A stretch of DNA of 9,688 nucleotides from a virus. Taxonomy: Duplodnaviria > Heunggongvirae > Uroviricota > Caudoviricetes. A model generated the notes under the pieces. The model was given only the letters and a program-made list of their open reading frames with translations. It was not told the DNA's origin and did no database searches. The DNA lies in IMG/VR virus record IMGVR_UViG_2541047758_000002, positions 1-9,688 of that record. One strand, written 5' to 3'. Below, in pieces: positions 1-9,688 of this stretch. Both the position numbers and the translations under genes were made by a program. Every line of letters starts with the position of its first letter. The stretch's first letter is position 1.

Positions 1-117
1 GAAGAAACCCGGAAAGACGGTAAGAAAATTGATTATCCGGCGCGTCCTCTGCTCGGCTTTACCGGTGAGGATGTGCAGATGATTGAAGAGATTATTCTGG
101 CGCACCTCGACCGTTAG
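1..117 (+). CDS. S: 3' end of tail completion protein (P2 gpS-like); partial, 5' end lies outside the window
   Basis: Frame 1 is open from position 1 to TAG at 115..117 (translation ...GFTGEDVQMIEEIILAHLDR*). It sits directly upstream of the V homolog, as S does in P2. Identity rests mainly on synteny. Confidence 0.55.
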   Translation, partial: EETRKDGKKIDYPARPLLGFTGEDVQMIEEIILAHLDR

Positions 118-136
118 TTGTGCCATTCCCGACACC
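118..136 (+). promoter_or_regulatory. Candidate late-promoter activator site (Ogr/Delta-type) upstream of V
   Basis: TTGTGCCATTCCCGACACC lies between the S stop and the V start, with TGT at 119..121 and ACA at 132..134 (ten intervening bases by my count). A related motif lies upstream of FI. P2 late promoters carry a TGT-N12-ACA dyad near -55. Confidence 0.3.
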
Positions 137-149
137 TCATCGTCACATT

Positions 150-171
150 GCCGCCGGTATGACCCGGCGGC
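150..171 (+). other. Perfect 8-bp stem / 6-nt loop hairpin in the S-V intergenic region
   Basis: GCCGCCGG-tatgac-CCGGCGGC; not followed by a T-run. Confidence 0.3.
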
Positions 172-183
172 ATCCTTCCCGTT

Positions 184-819
184 ATGAACACTCTCGCAAA
201 TATCCAGGAACTCGCGCGCGCACTGCGCAACATGATTCGCACCGGCCTTGTCGTCGAAACCGACCTTAACGCCGGTCGCTGCCGTGTGCAGACCGGCGGC
301 ATGTGCACCGACTGGCTTCAGTGGCTGACCCATCGCGCCGGGCGTTCGCGCACATGGTGGGCACCTTCCGTGGGGGAGCAGGTGCTGATTCTGGCCGTGG
401 GCGGTGAACTTGACACGGCGTTTGTTCTGCCGGGGATTTATTCCGGCGATAACCCCGCGCCGTCTGCGTCGGCGGATGCCCTGCATATCCGTTTCCCTGA
501 CGGGGCGGTGATTGAGTATGAACCTGAAACCAGTGCACTGACGGTAAGCGGAATTAAAACGGCCAGCGTGACGGCTTCTGATTCTGTTACTGCCACGGTG
601 CCGGTGGTCATGGTGAAAGCGTCAACCCGCATCACCCTGGACACACCGGAGGTGGTCTGCACCAACAGGCTGATTACCGGCACGCTGGAAGTACAGAAGG
701 GCGGGACGATGCGCGGCAATATTGAACACACCGGCGGTGAACTCTCATCAAACGGTAAGGTACTGCATACCCATAAACACCCCGGCGACAGCGGCGGCAC
801 AACCGGGAGTCCTCTATGA
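184..819 (+). CDS. V: Baseplate central spike / baseplate assembly protein V (P2 gpV-like)
   Basis: 211-aa ORF, the same length as P2 gpV; the translation (MNTLANIQELARALRNM...HTHKHPGDSGGTTGSPL) matches what I recall of gpV. Stop overlaps the next start (ATGA at 816..819). Confidence 0.9.
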   Translation: MNTLANIQELARALRNMIRTGLVVETDLNAGRCRVQTGGMCTDWLQWLTHRAGRSRTWWAPSVGEQVLILAVGGELDTAFVLPGIYSGDNPAPSASADALHIRFPDGAVIEYEPETSALTVSGIKTASVTASDSVTATVPVVMVKASTRITLDTPEVVCTNRLITGTLEVQKGGTMRGNIEHTGGELSSNGKVLHTHKHPGDSGGTTGSPL

Positions 820-2680: not shown

Positions 2681-3957
2681 CAGTGAAATACTACGCCATT
2701 CTGACTAATCAGGGCGCAGCACGGCTGGCTAACGCGACGATGCTCGGCAGTAAGCTGAATCTGACGCAAATGGCCGTTGGTGATGCGAATGGTGTCTTGC
2801 CGACACCAGACCCGGCACAGACAAAACTGATTAACCAGAAACGCATTGCACCGCTGAATCTTCTGAGTGTTGACCCGAATAACCAGAGCCAGATTATTGC
2901 GGAGCAAATCATCCCTGAGAACGAGGGCGGATTCTGGATCCGTGAGATTGGGCTTTATGATGATGAAGGCGTACTCATTGCGGTGGCGAACTGCCCGGAA
3001 ACGTACAAACCGCAGTTGCAGGAAGGCAGCGGTCGTACCCAGACTATCCGCATGATTCTGGTTGTCACGAATACCGAAGCTATCACGCTGAAAATCGACC
3101 CGTCGGTGGTACTGGCGACCCGTAAATACGTGGATGATGAAGTCCTGGAATTAAGGCTGTATGTGGATGACCAGATGAGAAACCATATTGCCGCACAGGA
3201 TCCTCATACCCAGTATGCACAGAAACATAATCCGACATTTACCGGAGAACCAAAAGCGCCGACGCCTGCTGCAGGAAATAACACCACGCGGATTGCGACC
3301 ACTGCGTTTGTTCAGGCGGTTATTACCGCTCTGATTAACGGTGCGCCTGCCACGCTGGATACACTGAAAGAAATTGCCGCAGCCATTAACAATGACCCGA
3401 AATTCAGCACCACCATTAACAATGCGCTGGCAGGTAAACAACCGCTGGACAATACGCTGACTAATTTGAGTGGAAAGGATGTAGCTGGTCTTCTCACATA
3501 CCTTGGAATAGGAGAAACGGGAAAATACGACATTCTGCCAGCATCAAGAGGAGGCACTGGAGCGTCAACTATAGCCGGAGCATTGATAAACTTTGGTCTG
3601 AGTGATTTAGTGACTGCCGGATTAGTACAGGTGGAATCTGGTACAGACTTTATTACTGCTAAGATTCCATTTCTGTCCGGTGGTAGAAAGCGATTCCTGA
3701 TGATACATGCCATCAAGGCGACAATGCCTGCAAATAATAACGGGTATAACCTTACTGTTACATTCCCAACTGCCTATGATAATGCACCGATACCAATTCT
3801 TGGCTCGACCGTAGGGTCGACTTCAACAACGGGTGGTACCACAGAGTCAATGAATATTTCATCAGTCACAAAATCGGGTTGCATCATTTCTTCAGCATGG
3901 CAAACATGGTCTGAGGGACCGGTATATCTTTTAACGATTGGAGGAGTTGCAGCATGA
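2677..3957 (+). CDS. H: Tail fibre protein (P2 gpH-like): constant N-terminal part to about 3503, variable C-terminal part 3505..3957 inside the invertible segment
   Basis: 426-aa ORF with start overlapping the I stop (ATGA). The N-terminus (MTVKYYAILTNQGAARLANA...) is the conserved fibre N-terminal domain shared by P2 H and Mu S-type fibres. The C-terminal third is AT-richer and begins at a hix/gix-like site. Confidence 0.9.
   Translation: MTVKYYAILTNQGAARLANATMLGSKLNLTQMAVGDANGVLPTPDPAQTKLINQKRIAPLNLLSVDPNNQSQIIAEQIIPENEGGFWIREIGLYDDEGVLIAVANCPETYKPQLQEGSGRTQTIRMILVVTNTEAITLKIDPSVVLATRKYVDDEVLELRLYVDDQMRNHIAAQDPHTQYAQKHNPTFTGEPKAPTPAAGNNTTRIATTAFVQAVITALINGAPATLDTLKEIAAAINNDPKFSTTINNALAGKQPLDNTLTNLSGKDVAGLLTYLGIGETGKYDILPASRGGTGASTIAGALINFGLSDLVTAGLVQVESGTDFITAKIPFLSGGRKRFLMIHAIKATMPANNNGYNLTVTFPTAYDNAPIPILGSTVGSTSTTGGTTESMNISSVTKSGCIISSAWQTWSEGPVYLLTIGGVAA
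3491..3516. repeat. Left crossover site of the invertible segment (hix/gix/cix-like 26-bp site), inside the H coding sequence
   Basis: TTCTCACATACC-TT-GGAATAGGAGAA. It matches the reverse complement of the right site (TTTTCTTAAACG-TT-GGTTTAGGAGAA) at 18 of 26 positions, 12 of 14 in the half that lies inside the segment. It has the 12-2-12 architecture of Hin-family recombination sites. Confidence 0.65.
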
Positions 3958-4340
3958 AATATTATTCACCTTCAATTAATGGATTTCCCGAACAAAAGAC
4001 TGATGACAGTATTGAGATCAGTGAAGAGGTCTGGAGAATACTTCTTAGTGAAATTTACTCAGGCCGGGAGTTATTTAACGATGGCGGCGTACCCGCTACC
4101 CGTGTGCCGCAACCTACGCAAGAACAAGTAATTGCAGCCGCAGAAAATGAGCGCCAACGATTGCTGAATTATGCTGATACCGTAATGCTCGACTGGCGTA
4201 CAGAATTGATGCTGGGTGAAATCAGCGACGCCAACAGGGCTAAATTGTCGGCGTGGCTGGCTTATAAAAATCAAGTTAAGTCGGTTGATGTGACAACTGA
4301 CCCTGAGCATGTTAACTGGCCTATTTCCCCGGAGGCGTAG
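3954..4340 (+). CDS. Tail fibre assembly chaperone (P2 gpG / Mu U / Tfa family) for the currently expressed fibre tip
   Basis: 128-aa ORF with start overlapping the H stop (ATGA). Sits immediately downstream of the fibre gene; the C-terminal region (...EHVNWPISPEA) resembles Tfa proteins. Confidence 0.8.
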   Translation: MKYYSPSINGFPEQKTDDSIEISEEVWRILLSEIYSGRELFNDGGVPATRVPQPTQEQVIAAAENERQRLLNYADTVMLDWRTELMLGEISDANRAKLSAWLAYKNQVKSVDVTTDPEHVNWPISPEA

Positions 4341-4752
4341 GCCATTCAATATCTGGCGCACCGGAAGTATCGACCAGTTCCAGTGCGTCCAGATAATCCA
4401 GCCACGAATTATATTGCGCCAGTTCCTCTCCTTTCAGACGACCAATCGCCGCTTTACCAGGCCATTGCTTACTGTTTATGTATTCGTTGACCTGATTAAT
4501 CAATTGCTGCTTTTCCAGTTCGGCTGCGGCAATTTGTTCCTCATGAGTTGGCGGTGGAATATCAATCCATGCTGGCATTCCGTCGATGACACCTCTGTAT
4601 TTTCCTTCTGGTGCTTCCTTCATAAATTCGGCGGCAACAGTGTCGTCAATTTCGATTCCATCATCGGGCCATTCGCCGGATTCCTGATAAGCGATTTTAA
4701 GCTCCACAGGGAAAAACGCATTTTTCTCGGCACTGAAAATATATTTCTGCAT
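4321..4752 (-). CDS. Alternative tail fibre assembly chaperone (Mu U'-like), partner of the silent fibre cassette
   Basis: 143-aa ORF on the - strand, starting 2 nt after the stop of the silent fibre cassette. The C-terminus (...DIEWPTPPGK) is Tfa-like. Its 3' end overlaps the + strand chaperone gene by 20 nt. Confidence 0.8.
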   Translation of the reverse strand: MQKYIFSAEKNAFFPVELKIAYQESGEWPDDGIEIDDTVAAEFMKEAPEGKYRGVIDGMPAWIDIPPPTHEEQIAAAELEKQQLINQVNEYINSKQWPGKAAIGRLKGEELAQYNSWLDYLDALELVDTSGAPDIEWPTPPGK

Positions 4753-4754
4753 TT

Positions 4755-5111
4755 CTACCGTCCTATCGAAATATAACTGAATCTGTATTGCTGTGAGATA
4801 TCACTGGTTGCCACACGCCACGCTGAATTACTGATATGTTCAAAATTTACAGACAAAACCTGCGGGGCAGGATTCGACGGGTCTGACTGAACGGCATCAG
4901 ACATAACACTGACTGAAACCATCGGCTGATTAGGGAATGGTATAGGGAAGTGTCCACTGATAAAGCGGGTCGTGTTTCCTGAAAAAGTGCCAAACTGAAC
5001 AATATATCCACCTGGTAGCCTGAACCATCCCGAACCAGAAGCGAATGCTCCCATATCAGGTATCTGATTATCTCCTGTGCCCACATCCCTTTTCGCCGCT
5101 TCTCCTAAACC
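4755..5111 (-). CDS. Silent alternative tail-fibre C-terminal cassette (Mu S'v-like); lacks its own start and would be expressed only after inversion fuses it to the constant part of H
   Basis: - strand reading frame open from the right crossover site to TAG at 4757..4755. Its first codons after the crossover core (GLGEAAK...) parallel the H codons after the left core (GIGETGK...). Frame arithmetic shows an in-frame fusion after inversion. Confidence 0.7.
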   Translation of the reverse strand, partial: GLGEAAKRDVGTGDNQIPDMGAFASGSGWFRLPGGYIVQFGTFSGNTTRFISGHFPIPFPNQPMVSVSVMSDAVQSDPSNPAPQVLSVNFEHISNSAWRVATSDISQQYRFSYISIGR

Positions 5112-5125
5112 AACGTTTAAGAAAA
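5100..5125. repeat. Right crossover site of the invertible segment (hix/gix/cix-like)
   Basis: TTCTCCTAAACC-AA-CGTTTAAGAAAA. Close to the Hin-family half-site consensus TTxTCxxAAACC with a 2-bp AA core, inverted relative to the left site (core TT on the + strand). Lies 55 bp upstream of the invertase start. Confidence 0.7.
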
Positions 5126-5180
5126 TGCAGAGGTAACAGCTAACTGGCATCATCCCCGGTTTTTATTCAGGGGGATAATC

Positions 5181-5774
5181 ATGCTTATTGGCTATGTACG
5201 CGTGTCAACAAATGACCAGAACACGGAATTGCAGCGTAACGCGCTGGAGTGTGCAGGATGTGAGCTGATTTTTGAGGATAAAATCAGCGGCACGAAGTCC
5301 GACAGGCCGGGACTGAAAAAACTGCTCAGAACATTATCAGCAGGTGACACTCTGGTGGTCTGGAAGCTGGACAGGCTGGGGCGTAGTATGCGGCATCTGG
5401 TCATTCTGGTTGAGGAACTGCGCGAACGCGGCGTTAATTTTCGCAGCCTGACGGATGCTATTGATACCAGCACGCCGATGGGGCGTTTTTTCTTTCATGT
5501 GATGGGTGCCCTGGCTGAAATGGAGCGAGAACTCATTGTCGAGCGGACACGCGCCGGACTGGAAGCGGCCAGAGCCAAAGGTCGTATTGGTGGCGGACGA
5601 CCGAAACTCACTGCGGGTGAGTGGGAGCAGGTCGGACGGTTGCTGGCTGCGGGGGAATCTCGTCAACGTGTGGCGCTGATTTTTGATATTGGTCTGTCCA
5701 CGCTCTATAAAAAATTCCCCTCATCAGCGACAAAGAATAAATTGTGTCATCCCTTAGCCAACCGGGACAAATAG
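5181..5774 (+). CDS. Site-specific serine DNA invertase (Hin/Gin/Cin/Pin family resolvase-invertase)
   Basis: 197-aa ORF; N-terminus MLIGYVRVSTNDQNTELQRNAL... carries the serine-recombinase catalytic motif (YVRVST) and the ...DRLGRS... region; C-terminal helix-turn-helix (...GLSTLYKKFP). Shine-Dalgarno GGGGGA lies 5 nt upstream. Adjacent to the invertible segment. Confidence 0.92.
   Translation: MLIGYVRVSTNDQNTELQRNALECAGCELIFEDKISGTKSDRPGLKKLLRTLSAGDTLVVWKLDRLGRSMRHLVILVEELRERGVNFRSLTDAIDTSTPMGRFFFHVMGALAEMERELIVERTRAGLEAARAKGRIGGGRPKLTAGEWEQVGRLLAAGESRQRVALIFDIGLSTLYKKFPSSATKNKLCHPLANRDK
5742..5763 (+). promoter_or_regulatory. Candidate late-promoter activator site upstream of FI, overlapping the 3' end of the invertase gene
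   Basis: TTGTGTCATCCCTTAGCCAACC about 90 nt upstream of the FI start; shares TTGTG-CAT-CC with the motif upstream of V. Confidence 0.3.
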
Positions 5775-5833
5775 CCTGACATCTCCGGCACAACTGAAAA
5801 TACCACTCACCCATTAACCACGGAGTTAAACGG

Positions 5834-7024
5834 ATGAGTGACTATCATCACGGCGTGCAGGTGCTGGAGATTAACGACGGCACCCGCGTCATTTCCACCG
5901 TATCCACTGCCATTGTTGGCATGGTCTGCACGGCCAGCGATGCGGATGCGGAAACCTTCCCCCTCAATAAACCGGTGCTGATTACCAATGTGCAGAGCGC
6001 AATTGCAAAGGCCGGTAAAAAAGGCACGCTGGCGGCATCGTTGCAGGCCATCGCCGACCAGTCAAAACCGGTCACCGTTGTCGTGCGTGTGGAAGACGGC
6101 ACCGGCGACGACGAGGAAACGAAACTCGCGCAGACCGTTTCCAATATCATCGGCACCACCGACGAAAACGGTCAGTACACCGGACTGAAAGCCCTGCTGG
6201 CGGCGGAGTCGGTAACCGGTGTTAAACCGCGTATTCTCGGCGTGCCGGGACTGGACACCAAAGAGGTGGCGGTTGCACTGGCATCAGTATGTCAGAAGCT
6301 GCGCGCTTTCGGGTATATCAGCGCATGGGGCTGTAAAACCATTTCCGAGGTGAAAGCCTACCGCCAGAATTTCAGCCAGCGTGAGCTGATGGTCATCTGG
6401 CCGGATTTCCTCGCATGGGATACGGTCACCAGTACCACCGCCACCGCGTATGCCACTGCCCGTGCACTGGGCCTGCGCGCTAAAATCGACCAGGAGCAGG
6501 GCTGGCATAAAACGCTGTCCAATGTCGGGGTGAACGGTGTTACCGGCATCAGCGCATCTGTATTCTGGGATTTGCAGGAGTCCGGCACCGATGCTGACCT
6601 GCTTAACGAGTCAGGCGTCACAACGCTGATTCGCCGTGACGGTTTCCGCTTCTGGGGTAACCGTACCTGTTCTGATGACCCGCTGTTCCTCTTTGAAAAC
6701 TACACCCGCACCGCGCAGGTGCTGGCCGATACGATGGCTGAGGCGCACATGTGGGCGGTGGACAAGCCCATCACCGCAACGCTGATTCGCGACATCGTTG
6801 ACGGCATCAATGCCAAATTCCGTGAGCTGAAAACAAACGGCTATATCGTGGATGCGACCTGCTGGTTCAGCGAAGAATCCAACGATGCGGAAACCCTTAA
6901 GGCCGGAAAACTGTATATCGACTACGACTATACCCCGGTGCCTCCTCTTGAAAACCTGACCCTGCGCCAGCGTATTACCGATAAATACCTGGCAAATCTG
7001 GTCACCTCGGTTAACAGCAATTAA
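5834..7024 (+). CDS. FI: Contractile tail sheath protein (P2 gpFI-like)
   Basis: 396-aa ORF, the same length as P2 FI; GGAG ribosome-binding site upstream; followed by the tube gene. Confidence 0.92.
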   Translation: MSDYHHGVQVLEINDGTRVISTVSTAIVGMVCTASDADAETFPLNKPVLITNVQSAIAKAGKKGTLAASLQAIADQSKPVTVVVRVEDGTGDDEETKLAQTVSNIIGTTDENGQYTGLKALLAAESVTGVKPRILGVPGLDTKEVAVALASVCQKLRAFGYISAWGCKTISEVKAYRQNFSQRELMVIWPDFLAWDTVTSTTATAYATARALGLRAKIDQEQGWHKTLSNVGVNGVTGISASVFWDLQESGTDADLLNESGVTTLIRRDGFRFWGNRTCSDDPLFLFENYTRTAQVLADTMAEAHMWAVDKPITATLIRDIVDGINAKFRELKTNGYIVDATCWFSEESNDAETLKAGKLYIDYDYTPVPPLENLTLRQRITDKYLANLVTSVNSN

Positions 7025-7611: not shown

Positions 7612-7887
7612 ATGAACAAAGAAAATGTCATTACCCTGGACAATCCGGTCAAACGTGGTGAGCAGGTTATCGAACAGGTCACGCTGATGAAACCCAATGC
7701 CGGGACGCTGCGCGGTGTCAGTCTGGCTGCGGTTGCAAACTCCGAAGTCGATGCACTGATTAAGGTGCTGCCGCGCATGACGGCACCGATGCTGACCGAG
7801 CAGGAAGTCGCCGCGCTGGAACTGCCTGACCTTGTGGCGCTGGCCGGTAAGGTGGTCGGTTTTTTGTCGCCGAACTCGGTGCAGTGA
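7612..7887 (+). CDS. E: Tail assembly chaperone E (P2 gpE-like), zero-frame product
   Basis: 91-aa ORF, the same length as P2 gpE, between the tube and tape measure genes; contains the TTTTTTG slippery site near its 3' end. Confidence 0.88.
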   Translation: MNKENVITLDNPVKRGEQVIEQVTLMKPNAGTLRGVSLAAVANSEVDALIKVLPRMTAPMLTEQEVAALELPDLVALAGKVVGFLSPNSVQ

Positions 7888-8039
7888 CGTTTCCAAAAAA
7901 TCTCTCGGTCGATGACCTGATGGCGGATGTGGCAGTGATATTTCACTGGCCGCCATCAGAACTGTATCCCATGAGCCTGACCGAACTCAACACATGGCGC
8001 GAAAAGGCGCTCCGGCGAAGCGGAAACACGAATGAGTAA
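7612..8039 (+). CDS. E: Tail assembly chaperone E+E' made by programmed -1 ribosomal frameshift at 7860..7866
   Basis: The -1 frame downstream of the slippery heptamer is open to TAA at 8037..8039 (...VTFPKNLSVDDLMADVAVIFHWPPSELYPMSLTELNTWREKALRRSGNTNE*). The fusion would be about 142 aa, matching P2 gpE+E'. Confidence 0.75.
7860..7866 (+). promoter_or_regulatory. Slippery heptamer T-TTT-TTG for the -1 frameshift producing E+E'
   Basis: Sequence ttttttg read directly; same heptamer class as used by P2 E/E' and lambda G/GT. Confidence 0.7.
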
Positions 8040-9688
8040 CAATGTAAAATTACAGGTATTGCTCAGGGCTGTTGACCAGGCATCCCGCCCGTTTAAATCC
8101 ATCCGCACAGCGAGTAAGTCGCTGTCGGGGGATATCCGGGAAACACAAAAATCACTGCGCGAGCTGAACGGTCACGCATCCCGTATTGAGGGATTTCGCA
8201 AGACCAGTGCACAGCTCGCCGTGACTGGTCATGCACTTGAAAAGGCACGGCAGGAGGCCGAAGCCCTTGCCACACAGTTTAAAAATACCGAACGACCGAC
8301 CCGTGCTCAGGCGAAAGTGCTGGAATCCGCAAAGCGTGCGGTGGAGGACTTACAGGCGAAATATAACCGCCTGACGGATTCCGTTAAACGCCAGCAGCGG
8401 GAACTGGCCGCTGTGGGAATTAATACCCGCAATCTTGCACATGATGAGCAGGGACTGAAAAAACGTATCAGTGAAACCACCGCACAACTTAACCGTCAGC
8501 GCGACGCGCTGGCGCGTGTCAGTGCGCAACAGGCAAAACTTAACGCAGTAAAACAGCGTTATCAGGCCGGAAAGGAACTGGCCGGAAATATGGCCTCAGT
8601 AGGCGCTGCCGGTGTGGGGATTGCGGCGGCGGGAACGATGGCCGGAGTTAAGTTACTGATGCCCGGTTATGAGTTTGCGCAGAAAAACTCAGAATTGCAG
8701 GCCGTGCTCGGAGTGGCAAAAGACTCCGCCGAAATGACCGCACTACGCAAGCAGGCGCGCCAGCTTGGCGACAACACCGCCGCCTCGGCGGATGATGCAG
8801 CCGGTGCGCAGATTATCATTGCGAAAGCCGGCGGGGATGTTGATGCCATTCAGGCGGCAACGCCGGTCACGCTGAATATGGCGCTGGCGAACCGTCGCAC
8901 GATGGAAGAAAACGCCGCCCTGTTGATGGGGATGAAATCCGCCTTTCAGCTTTCAAACGATAAGGTCGCTCATATCGGGGATGTTCTCTCCATGACGATG
9001 AACAAAACCGCCGCCGATTTTGACGGCATGAGCGATGCGCTGACCTATGCCGCACCTGTGGCAAAAAATGCCGGTGTCAGCATTGAAGAAACCGCCGCAA
9101 TGGTCGGGGCGCTGCATGATGCAAAAATTACCGGTTCAATGGCGGGGACGGGAAGCCGTGCCGTGTTAAGCCGTCTGCAGGCACCGACGGGAAAAGCATG
9201 GGATGCACTGAAAGAGCTTGGTGTGAAAACCTCAGACAGCAAGGGAAACACCCGGCCAATATTTACCATTCTGAAAGAAATGCAGGCCAGTTTTGAGAAA
9301 AACCGGCTCGGTACTGCCCAGCAGGCTGAATACATGAAAACTATTTTCGGGGAGGAGGCCAGCTCAGCCGCCGCCGTGCTGATGACTGCCGCCTCAACCG
9401 GAAAGCTGGACAAACTGACCGCTGCGTTTAAAGCCTCGGACGGGAAGACCGCCGAGCTGGTAAATATCATGCAGGACAACCTCGGCGGTGACTTTAAAGA
9501 GTTTCAGTCCGCTTATGAGGCGGTGGGGACTGACCTGTTTGACCAGCAGGAAGGCGCACTGCGTAATCTCACACAGACGGCCACAAAGTATGTGTTAAAA
9601 CTCGATGGCTGGATCCAGAAAAACAAATCACTGGCGTCAACCATCGGCCTCATTGCCGGTGGCGCACTGGCGCTTACTGGCATCATCG
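8032..9688 (+). CDS. T: Tail tape measure protein (P2 gpT-like), N-terminal 552 codons; continues past the window end
   Basis: ATG at 8032 inside the E' stop (AATGAGTAA). The frame stays open to the window end (MSNNVKLQVLLRAVDQASRPFK...). Coiled-coil-like, Ala/Gln-rich composition typical of tape measure proteins; synteny after E/E'. Confidence 0.9.
   Translation, partial: MSNNVKLQVLLRAVDQASRPFKSIRTASKSLSGDIRETQKSLRELNGHASRIEGFRKTSAQLAVTGHALEKARQEAEALATQFKNTERPTRAQAKVLESAKRAVEDLQAKYNRLTDSVKRQQRELAAVGINTRNLAHDEQGLKKRISETTAQLNRQRDALARVSAQQAKLNAVKQRYQAGKELAGNMASVGAAGVGIAAAGTMAGVKLLMPGYEFAQKNSELQAVLGVAKDSAEMTALRKQARQLGDNTAASADDAAGAQIIIAKAGGDVDAIQAATPVTLNMALANRRTMEENAALLMGMKSAFQLSNDKVAHIGDVLSMTMNKTAADFDGMSDALTYAAPVAKNAGVSIEETAAMVGALHDAKITGSMAGTGSRAVLSRLQAPTGKAWDALKELGVKTSDSKGNTRPIFTILKEMQASFEKNRLGTAQQAEYMKTIFGEEASSAAAVLMTAASTGKLDKLTAAFKASDGKTAELVNIMQDNLGGDFKEFQSAYEAVGTDLFDQQEGALRNLTQTATKYVLKLDGWIQKNKSLASTIGLIAGGALALTGII

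Follow-up and report, generated by a model that had tools for sequence, protein, structure and literature searches.

Predicted activator sites of two late promoters upstream of genes V and FI in a P2-like prophage

Results

Genes of the late region and position of the two motifs

The DNA analyzed here, called the window in the following, is a stretch of 9,688 nucleotides of viral origin, and its identity was drawn from a map of its open reading frames in combination with Pfam matches and megablast against phage records. The genes are arranged in the order S (3' end only), V-W-J-I-H, an invertible tail-fibre module with a DNA invertase, and FI-FII-E-T, where the end of the window falls inside gene T (Table 1). 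Among the phage records the window is 95-97% identical to the Escherichia phages 'P2' T22, pro483 and S164 and to Salmonella phage MET_P1_103_31, and matches to it are present in 3500 of 5426 complete E. coli genomes. Judged by this gene order and these identities, the window is the late region of an ordinary P2-like (Peduovirus) prophage, that is, a textbook system. A search against Rfam gave no RNA family match anywhere in the window.

Two oppositely oriented reading frames, 4321-5153 on the minus strand and 3954-4776 on the plus strand, adjoin the invertase gene, and their arrangement is consistent with an invertible cassette of tail-fibre and assembly genes as annotated in pro483. Further downstream, the overlapping reading frames 7612-7887 and 7884-8039 correspond to the E/E' frameshift pair of P2-like tails.

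The two motifs under study, TTGTGCCATTCCCGACACC at 118..136 and TTGTGTCATCCCTTAGCCAACC at 5742..5763, had originally been picked out from the sequence alone as candidate late-activator sites placed 60-90 nt upstream of V and FI. Both were found on the plus strand at exactly these coordinates, the first starting 66 nt before the ATG of V (184) and the second 92 nt before the ATG of FI (5834), in keeping with the distances proposed. The V-side motif directly adjoins the stop codon of gene S (TAG, 115-117).

Table 1 Features of the two predicted late promoters in the window, and annotated late promoters of P2 and 186 used for comparison.
Feature	Sequence	Position	Strand	Basis or remark
Gene S, 3' end (tail completion)	Window	1..117	+	Translation ends EEIILAHLDR-stop; matches the P2/Wphi S annotation
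PV upstream activator (Ogr-family) site, predicted	Window	117..138	+	Second-best matrix match; TTGT 66 nt before V ATG
-35-like hexamer TTGCCG of predicted PV	Window	148..153	+	Conservation peak at -36..-34 in 62 V promoters; alignment of stacked P2 and 186 promoters
GC-only hairpin, 9 pairs (GCCGCCGG-tatgac-CCGGCGGC)	Window	149..172	+	RNA fold
-10-like hexamer CATCCT of predicted PV	Window	171..176	+	Conserved GCATyCTT block at -15..-8; P2 CAATCT in the same register
Gene V (baseplate spike)	Window	184..819	+	Pfam Phage_base_V and Phage_spike
Genes W, J, I, H	Window	3' of V		Order from ORF map, Pfam and megablast
DNA invertase gene	Window	5181..5774	+	Pfam Resolvase and HTH_7; ORF list; annotated as DNA invertase in pro483
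PF upstream activator (Ogr-family) site, predicted	Window	5741..5763	+	Top matrix match; in register with the annotated P2 pF site
Conserved AAATAGCC block, -35 region of PF	Window	5771..5778	+	Identical in P2 pF and 186 pJ; conserved upstream of FI
PF -10 hexamer GAAAAT	Window	5796..5801	+	Identical to P2; 6-8 nt upstream of the equivalents of the P2 start
Predicted PF transcription start (CAC)	Window	5808..5810	+	Homology to P2 start annotated at 17626-17628
Gene FI (tail sheath)	Window	5834..7024	+	Pfam Phage_sheath domains; Shine-Dalgarno GGAG at 5822-5825
Genes FII, E/E', start of T	Window	3' of FI
pO/pP activator site	P2 (NC_001895)	3057-3087		O start 3127
pV activator site	P2 (NC_001895)	10239-10266		Start 10308 is the first base of the V CDS; leaderless mRNA
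pF activator site	P2 (NC_001895)	17555-17583		Start 17626-17628
B-protein sites	186	3798-3817 and 14091-14110		pJ start 14159

The motif upstream of FI

The motif on the F side lies in register with the activator-binding site that the P2 record gives for pF. It contains an imperfect dyad, composed of aTTGT (5741-5745) and CCAAC (5758-5762) with 12 intervening bases, and thereby takes the form TGT-N12-CCA. The annotated sites of P2 pF, P2 pO and 186 pJ are imperfect in the same way. From position 5754 to the ATG of FI the window differs by one base from P2 pF, and this stretch includes the annotated transcription start; the TTGTG at 5742 is located 66-68 nt from the CAC that corresponds to it. 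Besides the register of TTGTG, P2 PF and the window have in common the right half CCAACC, the AAATAGCC block, the -10 hexamer, the leader and the Shine-Dalgarno sequence. They differ in the left part of the site, which reads TTGTGTCATCCC in the window and TTGTGCTGTCGA in P2, and in all of the DNA upstream of it. On the strength of this homology we regard the motif at 5742..5763 as the P2 PF activator site.

The site is not intergenic but is located inside the 3' end of the DNA invertase gene, where the last 11 codons and the stop codon overlap it, while the site in P2 follows the fun(Z) region. The invertase stop codon occupies 5772-5774, and the last approximately 10 residues of the protein are encoded by promoter DNA. 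Homology to phages of the L-413C/fiAA91 type sets in exactly at 5742 and that to P2 at 5754, so the activator site marks a mosaic junction.

The motif upstream of V

On the V side the left half site is perfect: GTTGT at 117-121, extended to GTTGTG as in the left half of the F-type sites. The right half is degenerate, since in the N12 register it reads ACCTC (134-138) and matches ACAAC at three of five positions. In an alternative register TGT (119-121) and ACA (132-134) are separated by ten bases, which is the count given in the original prediction. The TGT-N12-ACA element of the P2 late promoters, with which the motifs had been compared there, describes the F side in the form TGT-N12-CCA and fits the V side in its left half, while the ACA there sits two bases out of register.

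TTGT precedes A184, the A of the V ATG, by 66 nt, just as the P2 pV site precedes the start annotated for it by 66 nt. The same S-V junction with its motif occurs, at 96-98.5% identity, in 53 phage records, among them Wphi, L-413C, fiAA91-ss and pro483, and the PV regions of these four and of other Peduovirus phages show no difference of substance from that of the window. By sequence, then, the V-side motif belongs to the PV that Wphi, L-413C and more than 50 other P2-like phages share, and it is not P2's own PV. Alignment to the P2 late promoters was obtained for both motifs as far as register is concerned; as homology it held for the F side and not for the V side.

Several features are nevertheless common to P2 PV and the window, namely TTGT 66 nt before the V ATG, an ATnGC block at offsets 31-35, a weak CAnnCT -10 sequence 7 nt before the ATG, and the lack of a Shine-Dalgarno sequence. 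The differences concern the DNA in which these features are embedded. Between the S stop codon and the V ATG no homology exists between P2 and the window; this interval is approximately 940 bp in P2 (9368-10307) and contains a terminator, orf30 and an AT-rich promoter, whereas it is 66 nt in the window. The P2 PV dyad is TGT-N11-ACA (10242-10262), compared with TGT-N10-ACA or N12-ACC on the V side of the window, and its spacer is without the GC hairpin that the window carries (see below).

The -35-like hexamer TTGCCG belongs to the ATnGC block of the P2 and 186 late promoters, and it is followed after 17 nt by the -10-like hexamer CATCCT, from which another 7 nt lead to A184. By comparison with the P2 annotation A184 is the predicted transcription start of PV. 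No Shine-Dalgarno sequence is present upstream of V (ccttcccgttATG, 177-186), nor in any of approximately 80 related loci, while FI keeps its GGAG in nearly all loci, and this fits a leaderless V transcript like the one in the P2 annotation.

A generic promoter scan called neither the PV nor the PF core. Both cores are poor (TTGCCG/CATCCT at PV and TAGCCT/GAAAAT at PF), and a missed call is what is expected for activator-dependent promoters, although it gives no positive support. The records of Wphi and L-413C have no promoter annotated at the S-V junction, and the 186 record has no B-dependent promoter annotated before the V homologue orf32.

Comparison with late promoters of phage 186

When the promoters of P2 pF, P2 pO, P2 pV and 186 pJ are stacked on the first T of TTGT, the distance from TTGT to the start is 65-68 nt in all of them. 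The late promoters of 186 (pJ and pV/p12) resemble those of the window in carrying GTTGTG-N11-CCA in the same register, and 186 pJ in addition shares TTGTGCCA with the V-side site. Gene orf32 of 186 has TTGTG 66 nt ahead of its ATG, with a degenerate right half as in the window. Phage 186 differs in that its activator is B and not Ogr, and in having no hairpin in the spacer.

Conservation among related prophages

For a wider comparison the V protein was used to scan one genome per species, which yielded 80 Enterobacterales loci that were taken with flanks of 10 kb each. The regions upstream of V were anchored on the V ATG and dereplicated at 80% identity, leaving 62 sequences. Four groups of conserved columns stand out in these: TTGT at -66..-63, AAAC near -48..-46, TTG at -36..-34, and GCATyCTT at -15..-8. 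No conservation was seen upstream of -68 in the 62 regions. After refinement of the register the distance from TTGT to the V ATG is 66 nt in 36 loci, 65 nt in 25 and 67 nt in one.

In 49 of the 62 loci gene S is not adjacent to V, and the register of TTGT is kept in every one of them. An S homologue was located in 38 of these 49 loci, separated from V by 0.8-3 kb of unrelated DNA; in the remaining 11 none was found within 5 kb upstream of V. As the register relative to V is kept in spite of the inserts, the element goes with V rather than with S. The interval between S and V is a hot spot for cargo, and the inserts end just upstream of the TTGT at -65/-66, the orf30 of P2 being one example.

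The element is likewise conserved upstream of FI, where 52 regions from other species show it in a constant register. In these, 89-92 nt separate the left half site from the ATG, and downstream of the half site come CCAAC, AAATAGC, a -10 sequence resembling GAAAAT, and a near-invariant GGAG.

Taken over the V and FI sets the consensus is GTTGTGyCA...(A/C)CAAC, that is, GTTGT-N12-ACAAC, and it contains the published TGT-N12-ACA. GTTGT is found in 85% of the V-type and 88% of the F-type sites, and A at offset 18 in 93% and 94%, respectively; the window has C at this offset on the V side. The two types differ most at offsets 16-18, where CCA is present in 7% of the V-type sites vs 76% of the F-type sites. 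Originally the likeness between the two motifs had been described as TTGTG-CAT-CC. This pattern is indeed shared by both sites, but it is not the conserved element: CAT at offsets 6-8 occurs in 27% of the V-type and 24% of the F-type sites, and CC at offsets 10-11 in 8% and 37%, so the CAT-CC part of it is largely incidental.

Specificity of a weight matrix

The pattern TTGTGNCATNCC occurs exactly twice in the window vs 0.04 times expected from dinucleotide shuffles, a comparison that is circular as the pattern was derived from these very sites. With one mismatch permitted, its two matches are unremarkable against an expectation of 1.0. Likewise GTTGT-N14-AAC with one mismatch showed no enrichment in the window, and only a full matrix discriminates.

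As an independent test we used a weight matrix of 28 nt built from 100 sites that lie upstream of V or FI in other species, leaving out the window, P2, Wphi, L-413C and 186, as well as any site at least 70% identical to the sites of the window, P2 or 186. Over the approximately 19,300 positions on both strands of the window, the best match is at 5742 with 21.6 bits and the second best at 118 with 13.5 bits, while the third reaches 5.1 bits. Cross-training gave a corresponding result, as a matrix derived from FI sites alone ranks the V-side site second in the window and a matrix derived from V sites ranks the F-side site first.

Applied to the entire P2 genome, the matrix has its two best matches at the annotated pF and pO/pP sites, and in 186 the two best matches are both of the annotated B sites. 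In P4, the record of which is without promoter annotation, the best matches cluster at 9492-9549 just upstream of sid, where the promoter Psid lies. In pro483 the four best matches of the whole genome include PF, PO/PP and PV. A further pro483 match, of 14.6 bits at 21380 on the minus strand, is located inside an inverted tail-collar fibre gene in the invertible segment and scores above the pro483 PV site; the window has no counterpart of it, the best other match there having 5.1 bits.

Among 300 shuffled windows, 0-3 attain the score of the F-side site. The V-side score is expected by chance 0.15-0.4 times per shuffled window, and is as such modest, so that its significance rests on the position of the match in the expected register: in the sole register that the element takes in the relatives (65-67 nt before the V ATG, plus strand) a match of this score has a chance probability of roughly 2e-5. 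Scores below that of the V-side site of the window were obtained for the pV site annotated in P2 (7.2 bits) and for the site upstream of 186 orf32 (8.9 bits), so a modest score is typical of V-type sites.

A hairpin in the PV spacer

The stable GC-only hairpin listed in Table 1 sits in the PV spacer, flanked by the -35-like and -10-like hexamers, an unusual arrangement in a promoter, and forms part of a fold of positions 100-200 with an energy of -27.9 kcal/mol. It is not followed by a U-tract, since its tail AUCCUUCCCGUU has 5 U in 12, and a terminator scan made no call. A comparable hairpin is present in 33 of the 62 V promoters and is enriched where S adjoins V (11 of 13, vs 22 of 49 where it does not; Fisher p=0.013). 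P2 and 186 are without it. The hairpin at 149-172 is a candidate weak terminator, attenuator or insulator against read-through from the O operon.

Discussion

Each of the two motifs is very probably the upstream activator site of a sigma-70 late promoter of the activator-dependent kind in a P2-like prophage, with PV driving V-W-J-I-H and the tail-fibre genes and PF driving FI-FII-E-T and the genes that follow. A small activator of the Ogr/Delta zinc-finger family, encoded outside the window, would bind the imperfect dyad GTTGT-N12-(A/C)CAAC, centred approximately 57 nt upstream of the transcription start, and would bring RNA polymerase to promoter cores whose -35 and -10 hexamers are poor. At PF, transcription would start at 5808-5810 and give a leader of 24-26 nt with the GGAG ribosome-binding site, and at PV it would start at A184 and give a leaderless V mRNA.

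That Ogr recruits RNA polymerase through the C-terminal domain of the alpha subunit is established for P2, and the same contact may be supposed here. The P2 late promoters are described as sharing TGT-N12-ACA and depending on Ogr (PMC3931495), and mutations in Ogr are stated to suppress rpoA109 (PMC11434276). In pro483, the closest complete phage with the same layout of invertase and FI, a zinc-finger protein of the Ogr_Delta family (PF04606, 76 bits) is encoded after gene D. The ogr gene is expected downstream of gene D, beyond the window.

The reading of the two motifs as late-activator sites, put forward in the original prediction, is supported by their agreement with the register of the P2 and 186 promoters, by the conservation in 62 prophages, and by the first and second rank that an independent matrix assigns to them. 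It is essentially right, and the sites it identified are of a known kind and not new biology. This applies to the V-side PV as well, which is of known kind even though the Wphi and L-413C records leave it unannotated.

The V side is where other explanations have to be considered. One could imagine that the F side alone works and that the V-side site is a decayed remnant, so that in this phage type most transcripts of V-W-J-I-H would come from the O operon, by read-through of the short S-V gap. The degenerate right half and modest matrix score would agree with this, as would the mere 66 nt between the S stop codon and the V ATG, a hairpin which in lacking a U-tract makes read-through plausible, and the lack of an annotated promoter in Wphi, in L-413C and upstream of 186 orf32. 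We nevertheless consider it improbable. A remnant is difficult to reconcile with TTGT, -35-like and -10-like blocks whose positions with respect to the V ATG are conserved across 62 divergent loci, including the 49 in which S is not adjacent and the cargo often lies on the other strand, and the experimentally annotated P2 PV site itself scores lower (7.2 bits) than the V-side site. Moreover, without a Shine-Dalgarno sequence in front of it, V would be poorly translated from a read-through transcript. Mere coincidence in the likeness of the two motifs, without any function, could be argued from the fact that the shared pattern was defined post hoc, that its one-mismatch matches are about at chance level, and that relatives show little conservation at its CAT and CC positions. 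Against this stand the large gap by which the independent matrix separates the two motifs, as its first and second match, from everything else in the window, their placement at the exact register of annotated P2 and 186 promoters, and the homology of the F side to a mapped promoter. Pure chance was rejected on these grounds, being excluded for the F side and very unlikely for the V side.

It could also be asked whether the V-side site belongs to CRP instead of an Ogr-family activator, since TGTGC-N6-CGACA has the core spacing of a CRP site in its TGT-N10-ACA and matches TGTGA-N6-TCACA at 7 of 10 bases, and the V-type consensus can be written TGTGT-N6-CCACA. What is conserved in the relatives, however, is GTTGT together with A18/A19/C20, and matches to TCACA are mostly 2-3 of 5. 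Class I CRP sites are centred at -61.5, -71.5 and similar positions, and the V-side dyad, with its centre at approximately -57.5 from A184, is out of phase with them. The FI-derived matrix, built from sites that have no CRP-like right half, still ranks the V-side site second in the window. A class I CRP site was rejected on the basis of this centre and of a CRP right half that is not the conserved part in relatives, and we hold a CRP-type site to be extremely improbable.

With both motifs taken as Ogr-family activator sites, the value of the result is mainly in annotation, as it supplies operon boundaries and predicted transcription starts for a very common type of prophage, and no new biological question is opened by it. 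The late-activator element would be better described by GTTGT-N12-(A/C)CAAC, with TTGT 65-68 nt upstream of the start, than by TGT-N12-ACA. The activator site also marks mosaic junctions, as cargo placed between S and V, or between the tail-fibre module and FI, always stops just upstream of it. More tentatively, and with rather less than even likelihood, the PV of the Wphi type may form a distinct variant of the P2 late promoter, in which the activator acts through essentially one good half site (GTTGTG), a GC hairpin nested between the -35 and -10 hexamers halts or attenuates read-through from the O operon, and V is translated solely from the leaderless mRNA that this promoter makes. If so, expression of the V operon would be tightly coupled to Ogr and insulated from the operon upstream.
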